DNA of 64,000 nucleotides from an uncultured Nitrososphaerales archaeon (lineage in GTDB: Archaea; Thermoproteota; Nitrososphaeria; Nitrososphaerales; Nitrososphaeraceae), in the NCBI GenBank assembly GCA_963713605.1, contig CAVQMO010000014.1, positions 1 through 64,000 on the forward strand, given 5' to 3'. Of this stretch, positions 37,209 through 45,710 are shown piece by piece. A program made the position numbers and the translations under genes. Below the pieces are notes generated by a model. The model had not been told where the DNA came from. It worked only from the letters and a program-made list of their open reading frames with translations, and did no database searches. The number at the start of each line of letters is the position of its first letter. Position 1 is the stretch's first letter.

Positions 37209-38388
37209 TTATTTGGAGTAACGATGCAAGTCTTTGATGACTGGCCACTTTTCTTTGCGCAATGCGCCCATCGCGATCTTGTTTAGATTCAAATGTGCCT
37301 GTACCAACTCTGGAGGAGTCAAAGCCATCCATTGATTGAGCGAGAGATCTTCGAAATGTGGGCTCCTGAACATCTCTAGAAAACGGAGAGGCGTGTTACC
37401 GATGTTCTCAATATAATGTCCAAAAGCAAATGGGACTGTGCCGACATCGCCCGCTCGAAAGTTGAAAGTTCGAGCATTCCCTTCAGACGCAAATACGCCC
37501 ATTCGAGCACTTCCCTCTATGTAATATTGCCACTCTTCTGAATTAGGATGCCAATGCATCTCTCGCATACCTCCTGGTTCGACCTCCACAAGCCCAGCTG
37601 CAATAGTCGAAGCAGCCGGAAAGGTAGTTGAATCAATGATTCGTACACTGCCTCCACTTGTCTTCACCGATGGCTCGCGTCGAGAAATGATAGCTGAAAG
37701 ATCGCTGGCCCGAGGGATTCCTTACCTTGTCAGATGAGAGAGGCGGCGGAACCTCGCCCTGAAAGATATACCGTGTACGATCTACGTCCGTAGGAAGATG
37801 GGCGAAATCGCATTCCGACAGGCCGAAATTCTTTGCAAGCACCTCTTTTGGCGTATGAGCGAACCAATCTGTAATCAGAAATGTTGCATCTTCCGAAAAG
37901 GCACCATCATCGAATACGAGAAGGAATTCACAACCTTCCTCCAATCCCTGAATCGAATGGGGTATACCAGCAGGAAAATTCCATATATCTTCTGCTCCAA
38001 CGTCATCAACAAAGTTCTTACCTTCCTGGTCAACTGCAGTGATACGGGCCCTGCCGTACAGCATATATGCCCATTCCGCTTGTTTATGCCAGTGCAATTC
38101 TCGAATCCCTCCCGGATTAAGGCGCATATTCACCCCTGCCAATGTAGTGGCAGCCGGTAACTCACGTATTGTCACTTGGCGTGCCCATCCTGCTCCCTGA
38201 AGTCGATTGTGTGCCAAACTAAAGGAAAATTTCAAGTTCGGGAGGGTGCCATGATCGGTCCTCGGTGGAGTGAAAATATCTGGGTTCTGTCGATCTAATT
38301 CTACGTTACGCGGGCCAGGATCAGTACCACCTACGTTACCTTGAATGGGTTCAGGCGGAGCTTCTGCCTTCATCTTAAAACATAGCAC
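37209..38388 (-). pseudogene. oxdC: Oxalate decarboxylase (bicupin), frameshift near 37670
   Basis: [44 protein letters not shown] lid, second cupin [12 protein letters not shown]...GHYIEN. Confidence 0.9.
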
Positions 38389-38921
38389 CTAATATCAGAA
38401 TGCCCGAATTGCGTATGAGGTAAGAATTTTACTGCGTCTTCTATCATCCTTTAGTGCTACTCTACTGTATGCTTCATGGCATAATTTATTAGATAGACTA
38501 GTTGTTGCTTCTGCTACCAATCTAGATAAGGTTAAACAACATCCGAGTAACTTAAAAAACTTATTATTTGAAAAAAGTAGGCTCTAAATCTTCTGTTATG
38601 ATGGAAGATTCTGAATTAATTTATGGCTACTCTATTTCACACCATAATTAAGATGACTAATTTGACTAGGTATTATGATTGATACCGCAGGAAGCGATAT
38701 AGTTGCCCTAATTAATGTATATTTAATTTGGACCTCATATAAAGTCTTAGTAGAAATGATTGATTATTTTATACACTTGAACCTTTATCTGAGCTTTGAA
38801 GAATTAACACTACACTTTCGGCTGAATGACCATGTCATAAGATGTTGGATATTTTAGCCGTTCTCTATTTGTAGAGCTACTTTTAAATTAAACTCTTATT
38901 GTACTTTTCTGGAAGATATTA

Positions 38922-39639
38922 TTGTATGGTAGCATTTCGGTATTTGTAGCTAAAAAGGTAATAACAATGGATCCTGGATGGCCTAGTGCTACAGCAATAG
39001 CAGTGAGGGATGGCAAGATCCTATCTGTAGGATCTATGGAAGATCTAAGTCCATGGCTCAAGAACTCTCCATACGAAATTATCGATACCTTCAATGATAA
39101 GATTATCCTGCCTGGCTTTATTGAACCACATTCACATCCTATCATGGGAGGATTGATGCTCTCTCTACCACTTCTTAGTTACTTTGACCAGCCAAATCCG
39201 TACGGCTCTTCATTTAAAGGGCTCAAATCTAAGGCGCAAGTACTTACGAAACTTATAGAATATAACAACAATATAGCAGATCCAAACCAATCATGGTCTT
39301 TGGAATAATTTACCAGGTCAAAACATCTTTAATCTAGTACTCCCATGGTGGTCAGCAGGGTTCCATATTCATGTTCATACAAATGGAAATGAGTCACAAA
39401 ATGTCATTATAGACATGTTGTCTTCATTACAAGATATTAAACCTAGATTTAACCATCGTTTCACCTTCGAACATTTCGGTATAGCTACTCAAGACCAGAT
39501 CAAAAAATTAAAGGAACTTGGAGGAGTAGTTGGTGTCAATCCGTACTATATTTATCACCGTGGCGAGATTAATGCTGGTCATATTGGTACAGATCTCGCA
39601 TACAAGGCATTACCGAATGGACCGCTACAGAAGCAGTAA
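38922..39639 (+). pseudogene. Amidohydrolase_3 (YtcJ-like) fragments with large internal deletion
   Basis: ATAIAVRDGKILSVG, ILPGFIEPHSHP; later HVHTNG and RFTFEH fragments. Confidence 0.75.
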
Positions 39640-39676
39640 TGAATCCAGCTTCACCACGTTTTGTGAGGGGTTCAGT

Positions 39677-40191
39677 TGTCCCTAGATGGCTCCTTTGAAG
39701 GACCAAATAAAGAGTTGGACTGGCATGTATGGGATGATGAAATGGAAAAGTAAATGAACGATTTTCTGAATACTGTGGATGCAATTTTATTGGGACGTGG
39801 TGCCAATCAACTTTTGGCAGCTTACTGGCCATCCTTAACTGAGAACTAGCTCCCAAGTTGAATAACTTACCCAAAATAGTTTTTTCAAAGACATTGGAAA
39901 AGGTTGAATGGAAAAACTCAGGACTGATCAAAGAAAATATCAGGGAAGAGATCTTGAAAATTAAACAACAGCCTGGCAAAGATCTGGTTCTATTTGGTGG
40001 TGCCAATATTGCATCTACACTCCTGCAACTCGGTTTAATTGATGATTATAGAATCATAGTCAATCCTGTCGTCTTGAGTAATGGCAAACCATTTTTAAGA
40101 CATGAAAGATAGACTTAGCCTGAAACTTCTCAATACAAAGACGTTTAATTGCGGAAATGCTATTCTTTACTATGAACCACTCAAGAGATAG
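39677..40191 (+). pseudogene. Dihydrofolate reductase/RibD C-terminal family protein, disrupted
   Basis: SLDG.FEGP..ELDW, DAILLGR, AYWP, PKIVFSKTL..VEW, GKDLVLFGGA, GLIDDYRIIVNPVVL..GKP. Confidence 0.8.
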
Positions 40192-40580: not shown

Positions 40581-41519
40581 TTATCTCGATCTATGCAAAA
40601 CCGGGCGCAGTAATAATCTGTTATTAATTTCCTTCATTATCCAATCGTCGTAATATTGCAATTTGGTAAGTATGTAGGCATCTGCACTTTTAACACCTGC
40701 AAAAGAGTTCACCCTGGCCAGAACATAATCAACCACAAACACATTTTCGCCAAAGAGAATGAAAGTCAACTGATCCTCAGGTTGGATTACACTAGGACTG
40801 TACAAGATATTTGCTTGAAATTCTGAGTACATGCGTTCAAGTATATTGTGATATTGGGATTTGGCAACTGTTATTGGAATAACAAATTGAATATATCCTA
40901 TCATAGCAGCTGGACTGCATTGAAGAGAGAAATCTAATAAACGCATCTCCTTCATCTTATTGAGGCGTCTTGTTGTGGTTTTTTCAGAGATGCCAACTTC
41001 TTTGGCAATATCAGATATCTCTATTCTAGCACCTGATAGCAGCAGACATTTTATTATTCTCAAATCTGTTTCGCTTAGGTCAGTAGATGCAACAGATAGT
41101 TCAGTAACAGAAATGCTTACAACGGTAGCAGGTTTTAGGCGATCATTTAATGACTGGATAATCTTCTCATCTAATGGTTTTTTGATGATTAGGGCAGCCA
41201 CAGAAGTTCTTCCCACATGATGCACATGATATGCAAGATCTCCAAATTCCTTGACACGTTGGATGATATCATCCTTAGTTATTCCATTACTAGTCCTGAT
41301 TAGCACAATAGCTGTTCTATAACCAAAAGCTGCAGGATTAACTCTAACTACAAACCTTTCTATGACTCCACTGCGTACCATCTTTTTCACTCTCGCCTTT
41401 ACACTCTTTGATGTTAAGCCAATCTGTGAGCCTATACTGCTATAAGAAGTTCTACAGTCCCTAGCTAAAGTGGGGAGAATAGTAAGATCATTTTTATCGA
41501 GTATCATTCTGTTCTCCAT
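40581..41519 (-). CDS. Lrp/AsnC-family regulator with two HTH modules
   Basis: LDKNDL.IL..LARDCRTSYSSIG..IGLT.KSVKARV and LSETDLRII...ARIEISDIAKEVGISEKTTTRRL. Confidence 0.88.
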   Translation of the reverse strand: MENRMILDKNDLTILPTLARDCRTSYSSIGSQIGLTSKSVKARVKKMVRSGVIERFVVRVNPAAFGYRTAIVLIRTSNGITKDDIIQRVKEFGDLAYHVHHVGRTSVAALIIKKPLDEKIIQSLNDRLKPATVVSISVTELSVASTDLSETDLRIIKCLLLSGARIEISDIAKEVGISEKTTTRRLNKMKEMRLLDFSLQCSPAAMIGYIQFVIPITVAKSQYHNILERMYSEFQANILYSPSVIQPEDQLTFILFGENVFVVDYVLARVNSFAGVKSADAYILTKLQYYDDWIMKEINNRLLLRPVLHRSR

Positions 41520-41623
41520 CTAGAGTCATACTTTTATTATTACATCTATGTGTAATAAAGTTGTCCGATATCGGAAGTTTCGCTTCCCCTAAGGATAAGT
41601 ATCCGCAACTGTACTATTCCAGT

Positions 41624-42209
41624 ATGAAAAGTATTGAAATAGATGAAAAAGTTGAACGGCACTTATATACTAATGAGAAACGGAACGAAAAAATACTGAA
41701 TACTGAATCTAAAGGAACAATAACCATTGAAGAGGAGTACGGAACACTAAAGTATGAACGACGACTTTCTCATCCAAGAGAGATAGTATGGAAGGCGATT
41801 ACAGATCCAAAAGAGATATTCAGATGGTTGCCCGATTACAGAGGAACCTTCGACGGGTACAATGGTGGTGCAATTGATCTTGTCAATACTGTATCAGGAT
41901 CCCACGTAACTGGAAATATTCTAGTCTGGGATCTTTACCGCGTTTTTGAGTATGAGTGGCATATCTCTCCTATTTCAATGTTCCCTCATGGAGAACCTGA
42001 ATCTGTTATCCGGTGGGAGCTCAAGCAGGACGGCGATTCAGATACACTCCTTATTGTGACTCACAGCCGCCTCACCAAATCGACAGCTTTACGTTTAGCC
42101 CCTGGTTGGCATGCGTACCTCAGATCGGCTTGAAGGCATTCTAAATAATCAAGTACCACCAGATTGGGCGCGTCGGTTCGCAGAGGTCAAAGAATTATAT
42201 CCATCATAA
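41624..42209 (+). pseudogene. SRPBCC/AHSA1 domain protein, frameshift near 42120
   Basis: ERRLSHPREIVWKAITDP, IRWEL, T.LIVTH, PGWHAYL, then DRLEGIL...RFAEVKELYPS* in another frame. Confidence 0.8.
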
Positions 42210-42872: not shown

Positions 42873-43493
42873 TCACACCATCGTTCGAAAGGTCAGGTTT
42901 ATTCTTGCTTGAGTGATTTTATTAGACTTAGGTAAGCTGTGCAACCAATTCATTTGTGTAGCATCTTTCATAACAAGCAAACTGCCGTGTTCAAGGACAA
43001 GCGATACCGTTTGTTTAGTTTGTTTGTGCTTGAATGAAAACTTTCGTTCTGCTCCAAAGCTTAATGATGCAATAGGAGTATTCTTTCCCACTGATCTTTC
43101 ATCATCGCTATGCCATCCCAAGCCTTCATTCCCGTTATGATATAAGTTTAGCAAACAAGAATTGAATCTTGCTCCTGTAATTTGTTCTACTAATCGCTTA
43201 AGCTCTAAAAGTTCTTTAGTCCATGTTAATGCCTGCTTTGTCGCATTTGAATAAGTATACAAGTAATCAGAGTCACCATACCATGCTACTTTTCTTTTCG
43301 TAGTGATATGTTTACCGAGAATGATGGCTTCATCATTTTTCCACAGAATATTTTTCAATAATAAATCAAAATATCTATTTGCTTCTTTGCATGGCATGAT
43401 TATCCCATAATTGTGTGCTGTTCCGTCCTTGAGCAGAAGATTAGCTGTCTCGTCCACATCAAACATATCTAATTTTCCATTCATTACAATCAT
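42873..43493 (-). CDS. alkB: AlkB-family (ALKBH2/3-like) 2OG-Fe(II) DNA demethylase
   Basis: RKVAWYGD, FNSCLLNLY, GWHSDDE (HxD), IASLSFGAER, WLHSLPK, RINLTFR. Confidence 0.95.
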   Translation of the reverse strand: MIVMNGKLDMFDVDETANLLLKDGTAHNYGIIMPCKEANRYFDLLLKNILWKNDEAIILGKHITTKRKVAWYGDSDYLYTYSNATKQALTWTKELLELKRLVEQITGARFNSCLLNLYHNGNEGLGWHSDDERSVGKNTPIASLSFGAERKFSFKHKQTKQTVSLVLEHGSLLVMKDATQMNWLHSLPKSNKITQARINLTFRTMV

Positions 43494-43495
43494 TA

Positions 43496-43729
43496 CTAAG
43501 AGGTCAATCTATCTAGGTAATATCCCTGAAATATTGCTTCCTTTTCCGAAAAATTGTACACATTATCTTTTTTCATTTCATTTCTTCTTGTTTGATTAGC
43601 AGATCTGCATTCGGTTTCGAATGATTCAAAGAATGCTCTTTCGTTAAAGCAAAATCTCATTTTCCTTACTTCATCTCTTTTGATTATAGTACTTCTAATC
43701 TCATCTTGTTGTAGTATAGATGTATACAA
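43496..43729 (-). CDS. Small ORF resembling a degenerate Ada metal-binding-domain protein
   Basis: MKKDNVYNFSEKEAIFQGY resembles the Ada-Zn ...EN.VFF.S..EA...G(F/Y)RPC segment but lacks the C-terminal CxxC; abuts both neighbours. Confidence 0.45.
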   Translation of the reverse strand: MYTSILQQDEIRSTIIKRDEVRKMRFCFNERAFFESFETECRSANQTRRNEMKKDNVYNFSEKEAIFQGYYLDRLTS

Positions 43730-44452
43730 TTAATTTAAAGCATCATGGAAAATAATTCCAAGAACGTGTCTCTCTCCATCATGCACTTCGCTTACACCAT
43801 GTCTCATTTGTGCTCGATAATAGCCCTTGCTCCCTTTCACGGGCCTAAAATTCGTAGAAATTATCAGCATACCACCTTTACGTGGTCTCAATACAATGAC
43901 TTTTGACTGTAACCTTGGAATTTGCTGGGTTAAAACAAATTCTCCACCTGTATAATCATCATCAACCTCATTTAGAAAGAAAACTAATTGGAAAGGAAAG
44001 AAAAAGTCTCCGTATAGATCCTGGTGCAGTGTATTATGACCTCCCTTGCCATATTTTAGAATGAGAACGGTAGGTTTTATTTGATTATTCTGATGGCATA
44101 ACTCTTGAAGCTCATCAAACTTGTCCGGATAATTTCTTTCTATGTTTAACCTCTTCATCCACATATTCGCGATTGGTGCAAGTTTTGGATAAATCGCTTC
44201 CCTGATGGTTTGGATAAGATCCGGTAATGGATATTTGAAATATTTGTATTGACCTAATCCAAAACTATGCCTCTCCATTGTAATAGTCTTGCGATATAGA
44301 TCTGCGTTATCATATTCATCAATAAGTTCTTTGCAATATTGATCATGAAGAAATTGCGGCACCAAATTGTACCCTCTTGCATTCATTTCATCGGATACAG
44401 ACTGCCAGTCAATCTCTGAAATCTTTTCCTTTAAAACACTGGTGGTATTCAA
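43730..44452 (-). CDS. 2OG-Fe(II) oxygenase, DUF2086 / Oxygenase-NA family
   Basis: MERHSFGLGQYKYF.YPLP, PTVLILKY, NTLHQDLYG, YTGGEFVLTQQ.PR.QS, RHGVSEV, GIIFHDA. Confidence 0.92.
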   Translation of the reverse strand: MNTTSVLKEKISEIDWQSVSDEMNARGYNLVPQFLHDQYCKELIDEYDNADLYRKTITMERHSFGLGQYKYFKYPLPDLIQTIREAIYPKLAPIANMWMKRLNIERNYPDKFDELQELCHQNNQIKPTVLILKYGKGGHNTLHQDLYGDFFFPFQLVFFLNEVDDDYTGGEFVLTQQIPRLQSKVIVLRPRKGGMLIISTNFRPVKGSKGYYRAQMRHGVSEVHDGERHVLGIIFHDALN

Positions 44453-44458
44453 CAGTTT

Positions 44459-44908
44459 CTAATCTCTGTCTTTGTTGCCATGCGGGTAAACTCTGACATT
44501 CTTAAAATTCCGAACGATTCCATTGGTAAATGATACGCCCTCATTTTCAAGTAGTTGTCTTTTCTTAGCAGTTCCATAGGCGTAACCTCCTACTCGGCCG
44601 TTAGACATAACTACTCTGTGGCACGGCACTTTAATGGGGTTTGGATTTTCGCCAAGTATTCTACCTATTGCCCTTGAAGCTGATGGACTTCCCAGGGCTC
44701 TTGCTAGATCCCCATAAGTTGAAACCTTTCCTTCAGGTATTTTTAGAAGCAGGTCATATACATCGCTATTTCTTATCGGCTTATTAGTGGTGATCCTGGT
44801 CGCTTTGATTGAAGAAGGTTTTTTCACATCATGATTCAAGTACTTTACATCATCATCTTTATACATATGATGTGATACCATGATAGCGTTATATAAGTGT
44901 ATATTCAT
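44459..44908 (-). CDS. ogt: O6-methylguanine-DNA methyltransferase (C-terminal domain only); probable start 44866
   Basis: IPEGKVSTYGDLA, SRAIG, NP.PI.VPCHRVV with active-site Cys, K..LL..EG. Confidence 0.9.
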   Translation of the reverse strand: MNIHLYNAIMVSHHMYKDDDVKYLNHDVKKPSSIKATRITTNKPIRNSDVYDLLLKIPEGKVSTYGDLARALGSPSASRAIGRILGENPNPIKVPCHRVVMSNGRVGGYAYGTAKKRQLLENEGVSFTNGIVRNFKNVRVYPHGNKDRD

Positions 44909-44939
44909 ATTGCTATCTTGATAGCAGTATCTATATATA
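44873..44939. promoter_or_regulatory. Divergent promoter with palindromic operator
   Basis: TTATATAA 44889-44896 and TATATATA 44932-44939 flank TGCTATC-TT-GATAGCA (44911-44926); half-sites TGATACCA/TGATAGCG at 44873-44888. Confidence 0.65.
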
Positions 44940-44963
44940 CTTCTTAGGAAGATAGTTTATACA

Positions 44964-45710
44964 TTGACGCACAATCTCATCGTTAGAGGTTTCGACGATC
45001 AAATTCATGAGAAATTAGGAGAAATAGCAAATCAAAGAGGAGTTTCTATAAATTCAATAGTGAAAGACGCTGTCGATATCTGGCTAAAGAAACAACAATC
45101 AGAAGTACCTAGAAAGCATCATCTAGTGATCTATTCAGATGATGAATCCATGATGCGGCTACTAAAATCTATGGATAAACTAGCAAAAGAAGGTAACTTA
45201 TTTAGATGTTTCTTTGGACCGCCGCGAAATCCATCTAGCGAACTTTTGTCTAAACTTAAATGGTATGACGGTACAGTAAAACCTTATCCTTATTCTTTTG
45301 CAATACAGTCTAAGGATGAACAGCACGGGCTATCATTACAACAACAAACACAAGTTCAGGCTCAAATTCAAGTCCAAAGTCAAAAAAACATCATTAAATA
45401 TTGTGGTAGAGTAGTAGAGAATGTTATAAGGAATGCAAATAACAAGCAGGTATGCTGTATGGATTTTGTAATTAATGATGTAGGAAAAGATTCACTGAAA
45501 CACGCACTGATTGTAGAAAAAGCATACGATGACAACAGAATAGCGGGGCTGATGTATTGTACATATAAAACAGATAACTTACTGAATTCAGAAATAAAAG
45601 ATCTGATCGAGTTATTCGAAATGCATGATCAAATCTTCATATTAAAAGAAGACGAAGTATACAAACTCCATATAACAAAGGAAAATGTTCACAAGTTATT
45701 TTTGAGCTAG
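44964..45710 (+). CDS. Ribbon-helix-helix regulator fused to a MEDS-like sensory domain
   Basis: NLIVRGFDDQIHEKL...RGVSINSIVKDAV (RHH); HHLVIYSDDE...E.AY...MYCTY...HDQIFIL (MEDS-like). Confidence 0.75.
   Translation: MTHNLIVRGFDDQIHEKLGEIANQRGVSINSIVKDAVDIWLKKQQSEVPRKHHLVIYSDDESMMRLLKSMDKLAKEGNLFRCFFGPPRNPSSELLSKLKWYDGTVKPYPYSFAIQSKDEQHGLSLQQQTQVQAQIQVQSQKNIIKYCGRVVENVIRNANNKQVCCMDFVINDVGKDSLKHALIVEKAYDDNRIAGLMYCTYKTDNLLNSEIKDLIELFEMHDQIFILKEDEVYKLHITKENVHKLFLS

Follow-up and report, generated by a model that had tools for sequence, protein, structure and literature searches.

We analyzed a stretch of 64,000 nucleotides (nt) of archaeal DNA (the window; contig CAVQMO010000014.1 of assembly GCA_963713605.1), in which a gene for a putative transcriptional regulator stands head-to-head with a set of alkylation-repair genes. 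On balance, we favour the view that the regulator belongs to a DcmR-like repressor family with a ribbon-helix-helix (RHH) N-terminus and a MEDS domain, likely sensing a small reactive molecule, and that the sequences record its co-option for MGMT and a bacterial-derived DUF2086-alkB cassette. The window corresponds to contig C14 of a 4.09-Mb, 15-contig, 87.5%-complete assembly. The nearest named relatives of the regulator (87-91% identity; best 80 of 166 loci) come from Nitrososphaeraceae/Nitrososphaerales metagenome-assembled genomes, and the host is therefore placed in the Nitrososphaeraceae.

The MEDS-like domain announced by the original prediction is borne out by profile comparison and predicted fold, though Pfam misses it. 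The window protein gave no match to PF14417 (MEDS) in Pfam or NCBIfam and is not among the six MEDS matches in the host genome; nor is MEDS among the families listed (25 of 33) for the aligned regulator rows. When a profile of 27 diverse C-terminal domains of the family was compared by hhalign with 31 Pfam-positive MEDS domains from Nitrososphaeraceae genomes, they aligned over 147 columns with a probability of 95.8% (E = 7.6e-9). A hidden Markov model of the MEDS set scored the window domain at 10.7 bits, with reversed controls at 1.0 or less and the weakest forward row at 1.1. The AlphaFold model of the regulator (pLDDT 76.8, pTM 0.67) has KaiC-like and RecA-like proteins as its top structural matches (best 2ekd, Z 12.7, root-mean-square deviation 2.9, 151 residues aligned), and in the sequence the Walker A motif (GxxGxGK) is absent after strand 1 of the C-terminal domain. 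Residues H52, W100, C199 and H221 are the same in all 27 diverse rows, down to ∼25% identity, and the histidine of strand 1, the cysteine of C-x-Y and the terminal histidine of the MEDS consensus align on H52, C199 and H221; two further cysteines near C199 are well conserved. Judged by these profiles and the model, the C-terminal domain belongs with MEDS, as a divergent homologue that falls short of the Pfam cut-off.

The proposed RHH region remains putative: only RHH-type families match the N-terminus, but the scores of the window protein lie below the Pfam cut-off (FitA-like_RHH, E = 0.0014; ParG, E = 0.0024). FitA-like_RHH was matched, also below cut-off, in 21 of 24 aligned rows, and RHH_1 above cut-off in one of 20 distant relatives. 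The predicted monomer has N-terminal helices at residues 12-25 and 29-45, with residues 1-6 under a pLDDT of 50. No methyltransferase and no AraC-type helix-turn-helix (HTH) domain was detected with Pfam or NCBIfam. The family is compact, with 782 proteins (154 representatives at 50% identity), and was matched in 16 of 24 genomes of the same archaeal family and in two of 16 from other families; the ESM Atlas yielded no clusters other than unnamed ones of the family itself, all under 0.9.

The palindrome TGCTATC-TT-GATAGCA (site 1) and the two TATA-like boxes described earlier are present between the divergent genes (Table 1). What had been taken for extra half-sites near MGMT proved to be a complete second 16-bp operator (site 2). 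The ATG at 44908 is situated upstream of the TATA box on the minus strand; MGMT more likely begins at 44866, which leaves the same 6 nt between site 2 and the start codon as in relatives. Site 1 stands just upstream of the regulator TATA box, and site 2 follows immediately downstream of the divergent TATA box. In archaeal promoters, a site that covers the region from the TATA box to the start has repressor geometry. Site 2 spans this region, and a protein bound there would therefore be expected to repress.

We looked for two tandem TG[AC]TA[GT]CA boxes, allowing matches within 3 mismatches, in the 130 nt before the regulator gene in the best 80 of 166 genome loci, of which two were truncated. 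At least one operator match preceded 77 of the 78 related regulator genes, so the expected conservation of the palindrome was found. The number of exact matches expected in the host genome is 0.028, and of the 29 regulator-free loci examined (from 75 fetched), 26 had no site within 2 mismatches in 480 nt. Spacing was surveyed in 75 loci with at least 200 nt of upstream DNA, a divergent open reading frame (ORF) being one of at least 60 amino acids that starts 70-135 nt away. Two sites were present in 49 of 50 loci with such an ORF versus 11 of 25 without. In the two-site loci the divergent ATG lay 4-6 nt beyond site 2 in 44 of 60 cases; nine of 11 exceptions were re-read, and eight had an ATG exactly 6 nt past site 2 that opened a short or broken ORF. 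Both sites are kept in all 17 MGMT-linked loci. As a separate observation, conserved short ORFs start 6 nt past site 2 in L101, L104, L108, L109 and L110 (∼55 amino acids) and in L062, L064, L069 and L073 (42-44 amino acids). They precede OsmC-like or SCO4226-like genes, and could be unannotated small proteins or leader peptides.

The divergent partner was labelled in 74 loci. It was OsmC-like in 20 and an unknown gene followed by an OsmC-like gene in 5 (25 of 74 in total), and it was MGMT in 16; a 17th MGMT locus, L097, stands outside the 74 because of its broken regulator frame. The others were SCO4226-like (6), S-adenosylmethionine (SAM)-methyltransferase (5), an unknown 137-amino acid family (5), a distant metallophosphoesterase (6, with site 1 only), other genes (9) or too short to label (2). 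A nitroreductase is next in line in three Nitrosopumilaceae-type loci. The linkage to MGMT is thus conserved, in 17 loci within one lineage. The notion of a dedicated alkylation regulator found no support in the form first proposed: other genes, OsmC-like, SAM-methyltransferase and SCO4226-like ones among them, adjoin the family and its operator more often than MGMT does.

A tree was built from 77 rows, with broken-frame L087, L096, L097 and L105, truncated L070 and L100, and the window row excluded; the window row is represented by its 87-91% relatives. The 16 MGMT rows fall within one 18-row group (SH-aLRT 88), two rows of which have other neighbours, and this group is nested among OsmC-linked rows that include Nitrosopumilaceae and Nitrososphaera branches. 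We conclude from this nesting that the regulator is older than its link to repair. The MGMT label required 3 changes on the tree versus 14.7 when shuffled (L060 and L072 carry the tree label "other" but are SCO4226-like; the MGMT group is unaffected). Positions 23, 25 and 65 alone separate the 16 MGMT-linked from the 25 OsmC-linked proteins, and there is hence little to suggest that the sensor has specialised.

Downstream of MGMT, DUF2086 is found in seven of the 17 loci (one a fragment), alkB in seven and both in three; AlkA occurs in one, nothing further in three, and three end at a contig edge. The AlkA case (L039:3282-4471) has an AlkA_N + HhH-GPD gene and a DUF2086 fragment behind MGMT, under the same operator. 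Among 75 metagenome DUF2086 loci, the order regulator-MGMT-DUF2086 was found in 14. A 92-kb bacterial-type contig, L203, has the donor-type gene order Cada2-like / DUF2086 / Ada-Zn / alkB; its DUF2086 and alkB products are 61% and 66% identical to those of the window, and its Ada_Zn_binding gene is intact (79 amino acids, PF02805 above cut-off). The 293-amino acid product of its Cada2-like gene has the SPFHFQR, RLHD and PCHR motifs, which passages of PMC10957082 describe for Cada2-like regulators.

The 77-amino acid ORF of the window could not be upheld as a gene. Relatives carry breaks in its frame, at differing positions (4 of 4 relatives in one comparison and 7 of 7 close relatives in another), and it has no real Pfam match. 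The spacer DNA of the window could be aligned with two remnants, that of L161 (z 12.4) and that of L171 (z 11.5); L161 in turn aligns with L203 (z 19.1). Compared directly with the intact Ada-Zn gene of L203, the ORF gave no tblastn match and a DNA z of 1.5, which is not significant; it is tied to Ada-Zn because the less decayed remnants bridge the window and L203. Read through these alignments, the ORF is a decayed Ada-Zn gene. The archaeal MGMTs of these loci are 40-47% identical to the methyltransferase domain of L203, and for this reason MGMT likely did not arrive with the DUF2086-alkB cassette. The proposed acquisition of a bacterial-type repair operon therefore stands for DUF2086 and alkB, which are of bacterial type, but not for MGMT, which looks not to be from the donor operon. 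Passages of PMC7554672 report an inflow of bacterial repair genes into Nitrososphaerales; they do not mention alkylation.

Six further loci (L162-L166 and L195) have DUF2086 with an operator-like site (2-3 mismatches) 228-275 nt upstream and no regulator match in the locus. An MGMT fragment precedes DUF2086 in L162-L165 and L195 (it was not seen in L166). These loci possibly represent a decayed copy of the same arrangement.

In the window, the four minus-strand ORFs are tightly spaced (gaps of 6, 0 and 2 nt) and divergent from the regulator gene, as first described. Pfam agrees with the earlier labels: MGMT with an intact PCHRV motif (PF01035, E = 2.3e-31), DUF2086 oxygenase (PF09859, Oxygenase-NA/DUF2086, E = 2.8e-76) and AlkB (PF13532, AlkB-type, E = 2e-33). 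Each of the three repair proteins gave a single tblastn match in the assembly at E 0.01, and with the same search no second MGMT-domain gene (Ada or Cada2) was found in the 87.5%-complete assembly.

Table 1. Features of the regulator and repair-gene region (window positions).
Feature	Coordinates	Strand	Remarks
RHH-MEDS regulator, 248 amino acids	44964..45710	+	RHH at residues ∼1-45, divergent MEDS (inactive KaiC/RecA fold) at ∼49-240, both predicted
Operator site 1 (predicted), two tandem 8-bp boxes	44911..44926	no strand	5 nt upstream of regulator TATA box; likely autoregulatory
TATA-like box, regulator gene	44932..44939	+	24 nt ahead of TTG start, likely leaderless; position conserved in relatives
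TATA-like box, repair operon	44889..44896	-	Abuts site 2 directly; assigned from sequence
Operator site 2 (predicted)	44873..44888	no strand	Between repair-operon TATA box and MGMT start; likely repressing site
Short MGMT, C-terminal domain only, 135 amino acids from likely start	44459..44866	-	PCHRV intact; sole MGMT-domain match in assembly
DUF2086 / Oxygenase-NA 2-oxoglutarate (2OG)-Fe(II) oxygenase, 240 amino acids	43730..44452	-	61% identical to L203 copy
Pseudogene remnant, stand-alone Ada zinc-binding (PF02805) gene	43496..43729	-	Open frame not conserved, cysteine motif gone
AlkB-type 2OG-Fe(II) oxygenase, 206 amino acids	42873..43493	-	HxD...H...R motifs present; 66% identical to L203 copy

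Just past the repair operon, at 40581-42133, a double-HTH AsnC-type regulator is divergent from an AHSA1/SRPBCC gene. At 37633-40112, several genes seem to be broken up or to carry frameshifts (pieces of cupin, amidohydrolase-like and reductase-like genes), as does a topoisomerase-like gene elsewhere in the genome (G000:C1, ∼409558-414598); assembly indels or decay are possible in both cases.

The host genome has one paralogue of the regulator (L028, G000:C10 ∼944560-945384, 29% identity), with the same two-site layout in variant AGATATCT boxes, facing an alpha/beta hydrolase gene. As read from these predicted sites, the two paralogues differ in box sequence. A 116-amino acid RHH-like gene in a genome from a different family (L019:1345-1695) adjoins an integrase-like gene and has similar TGATATCA-type boxes upstream.

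The host genome was scanned with a matrix made from 54 distinct sites of related loci. The scan returned the two window sites and one strong site elsewhere; no genome-wide regulon was found, with 9 sites at a score of at least 16 versus 6.0 in shuffles. The strong site (G000:C12:351836-351851) is a perfect intergenic operator consensus and the sole exact match in the genome. It lies behind a TATA-like run, 99 nt ahead of an ORF that we call pyridoxamine-oxidase-like by eye and by its likeness to a neighbour in L056. From the distribution of predicted sites, the regulator appears to act close to its own gene and to have one distant target at the most. A role in trans on unlinked repair cassettes is unsupported, given the 26 of 29 regulator-free loci without a close site.

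Several known systems resemble parts of this arrangement. DcmR of Methylobacterium/Methylorubrum DM4 (HTH-MEDS; dichloromethane dehalogenase) is, like the regulator, a one-component protein with an N-terminal DNA-binding region, a MEDS domain and a detoxification-type target, and passages of PMC11197473 describe it as a stand-alone repressor. In contrast to DcmR, the regulator has a putative RHH region rather than an HTH, archaeal TATA promoters and a MEDS domain below the Pfam cut-off, and its putative targets are repair and stress genes. The MEDS domain is also shared with EtnR1/EtnR2 of Mycobacterium NBB4 and the HTH-MEDS protein of Methylohalobius crimeensis, which are tied to ethylene oxide. 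According to passages of PMC11197473, EtnR2, a MEDS protein, is required for the ethylene oxide response; passages of PMC11507031 report that epoxyethane genes of a methanotroph have an HTH-MEDS gene next to them, and state that copper membrane monooxygenases co-oxidise related substrates. EtnR2 differs in that it has no DNA-binding domain, acts with an activator and targets epoxide catabolism genes.

Ada of E. coli and Cada2 of Caulobacter share control of MGMT, AlkB-type and AlkA-type genes, and the direct-reversal genes behind site 2 are MGMT and an AlkB-type gene, plus DUF2086. However, Ada and Cada2 are AraC-type activators triggered by methylation of their own repair cysteine, whereas the operator geometry here suits repression. 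MetJ/Arc-type RHH repressors bind tandem 8-bp palindromic boxes, like those of the operator here, as side-by-side RHH dimers; MetJ differs in having no separate sensor domain and another box sequence. The archaeal inactivated-KaiC domains (MEDS, DUF835; PH0250, PDB 2ekd) have the RecA/KaiC fold without Walker A, as does the regulator domain. In passages of PMC5847659, MEDS is listed as an inactivated KaiC-like (iKaiC) domain in Nitrososphaera, alone or with REC, and no RHH fusion appears there.

We propose that the regulator likely acts as a one-component repressor by binding at two 16-bp operators in the promoter region that the divergent genes share. Bound there, it would keep expression of its own gene and of the MGMT-DUF2086-alkB operon low until it is released by a small reactive molecule, probably an electrophile. 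The MEDS systems that have been characterised react to small electrophiles, as in the response of EtnR1/EtnR2 to ethylene oxide (passages of PMC11197473). Since each operator consists of two 8-bp palindromic boxes, two RHH dimers would likely bind side by side. At site 1 they would likely block transcription factor B (TFB) at the regulator's own promoter, and at site 2 initiation between the TATA box and a leaderless start. The family may first have guarded OsmC-type stress genes; one lineage would then have put MGMT behind the operator, after which pieces of a bacterial adaptive response (DUF2086, Ada-Zn and alkB; AlkA in L039) gathered behind MGMT, the cassette's own Cada2/Ada-type control being left behind or decaying. 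The OsmC-linked relatives likely respond to the same signal, which is probably not DNA alkylation itself.

A number of points weigh against this proposal. The Pfam MEDS model does not score the window protein and matched only one of 20 relatives (E = 0.12), and an earlier hhalign run with only 5 MEDS domains gave an uninformative 11% before the rerun with 31. MEDS-like domains are abundant in Nitrososphaeraceae (27 of 31 genomes) without known ligands, and may take protein rather than small-molecule input. The operator consensus was drawn from the same loci in which it was counted, and these loci are kin, so that the counts overstate independence. The tree comes from a quick search without bootstrap, has a long-branch root and includes no test of one clade. 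L203 is called bacterial-type, with its taxon unstated. Finally, five of five MGMT-DUF2086 loci without the regulator also lack the operator (at least 5 mismatches), and the link is therefore not obligatory.

Other explanations were weighed against the same data. The regulator could be a redox or thiol-stress sensor, in which the His-Cys-His triad binds metal or acts as a thiol switch and oxidative or nitrosative stress turns on the repair genes. OsmC-like genes as the commonest partner, the nitroreductase of the Nitrosopumilaceae-type loci, the pyridoxamine-oxidase-like gene behind the best other genome site, and the conservation of C199 with its two neighbouring cysteines all fit this idea. 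We consider it unlikely, the triad being a general MEDS signature that is found in non-redox systems too, and the SAM-methyltransferase and SCO4226-like partners not suggesting redox. It is improbable that this branch of the family is a dedicated archaeal Ada analogue that specifically senses alkylating agents or alkylated DNA. In its favour, repair genes were gathered repeatedly behind MGMT, no second MGMT-domain regulator was found in the assembly and the Ada-Zn gene is dead; the sensor domain, however, is nearly unchanged relative to OsmC-linked relatives, the operator is the same everywhere, and two rows of the MGMT group have other neighbours.

Slightly less probable still is that no small ligand is involved, the inactive KaiC-fold domain serving as an oligomerisation or protein-docking module and expression being fixed or controlled by a partner. 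This would agree with the classing of MEDS as inactivated KaiC, alone or with receiver domains, in Nitrososphaera (PMC5847659, in passages), and with the six other MEDS matches in the host genome, but the invariance of H52, C199 and H221 among such diverse sequences suits a binding site. That the regulator controls only itself or activates the divergent gene, with MGMT a passive neighbour, is very improbable: site 1 does persist without a divergent gene nearby, and its position ahead of both TATA boxes would suit an activator too, but site 2 spans the TATA box to the start codon at a constant distance of 4-6 nt and has mostly disappeared from loci without a close divergent gene.

If the repressor does respond to a reactive small molecule, a broader and more doubtful suggestion can be made: ammonia-oxidising archaea might sense the alkylating chemical itself through an RHH-MEDS repressor, rather than the DNA lesion that Ada and Cada2 sense, and the same sensor family might mark a wider electrophile-stress regulon across Nitrososphaerota. 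An example of such a signal would be an epoxide or alkyl halide made or met in monooxygenase co-oxidation. Epoxides alkylate DNA, and ammonia monooxygenase can make epoxides; no paper specific to ammonia-oxidising archaea was among the matches listed in the literature search. RNA sequencing runs matched only in small shares (0.05-0.12) and gave no evidence for expression or habitat.

Our literature searches, which covered mostly titles and the beginnings of abstracts and excluded supplements, returned no account of an RHH-MEDS regulator, of its operator or of an archaeal regulator of alkylation repair, and the architecture may be tabulated in such supplements or in Makarova et al. 2017. A rise of ogt RNA in Saccharolobus after methyl methanesulfonate is reported in passages of PMC5751216.

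Gene regulation is barely mapped in this archaeal group, which is abundant worldwide. The analysis provides it with a transcription-factor family, a precise operator and candidate targets, and it offers a directly testable candidate for an archaeal regulator of alkylation repair. Being small and soluble, and with DNA binding as a possible read-out, this MEDS protein would be useful for finding what archaeal MEDS domains sense. The locus would also allow one to trace how an imported bacterial repair cassette loses its own sensor and is rewired to a host regulator, and the candidate control would let cells turn on repair without the bacterial Ada sensor.

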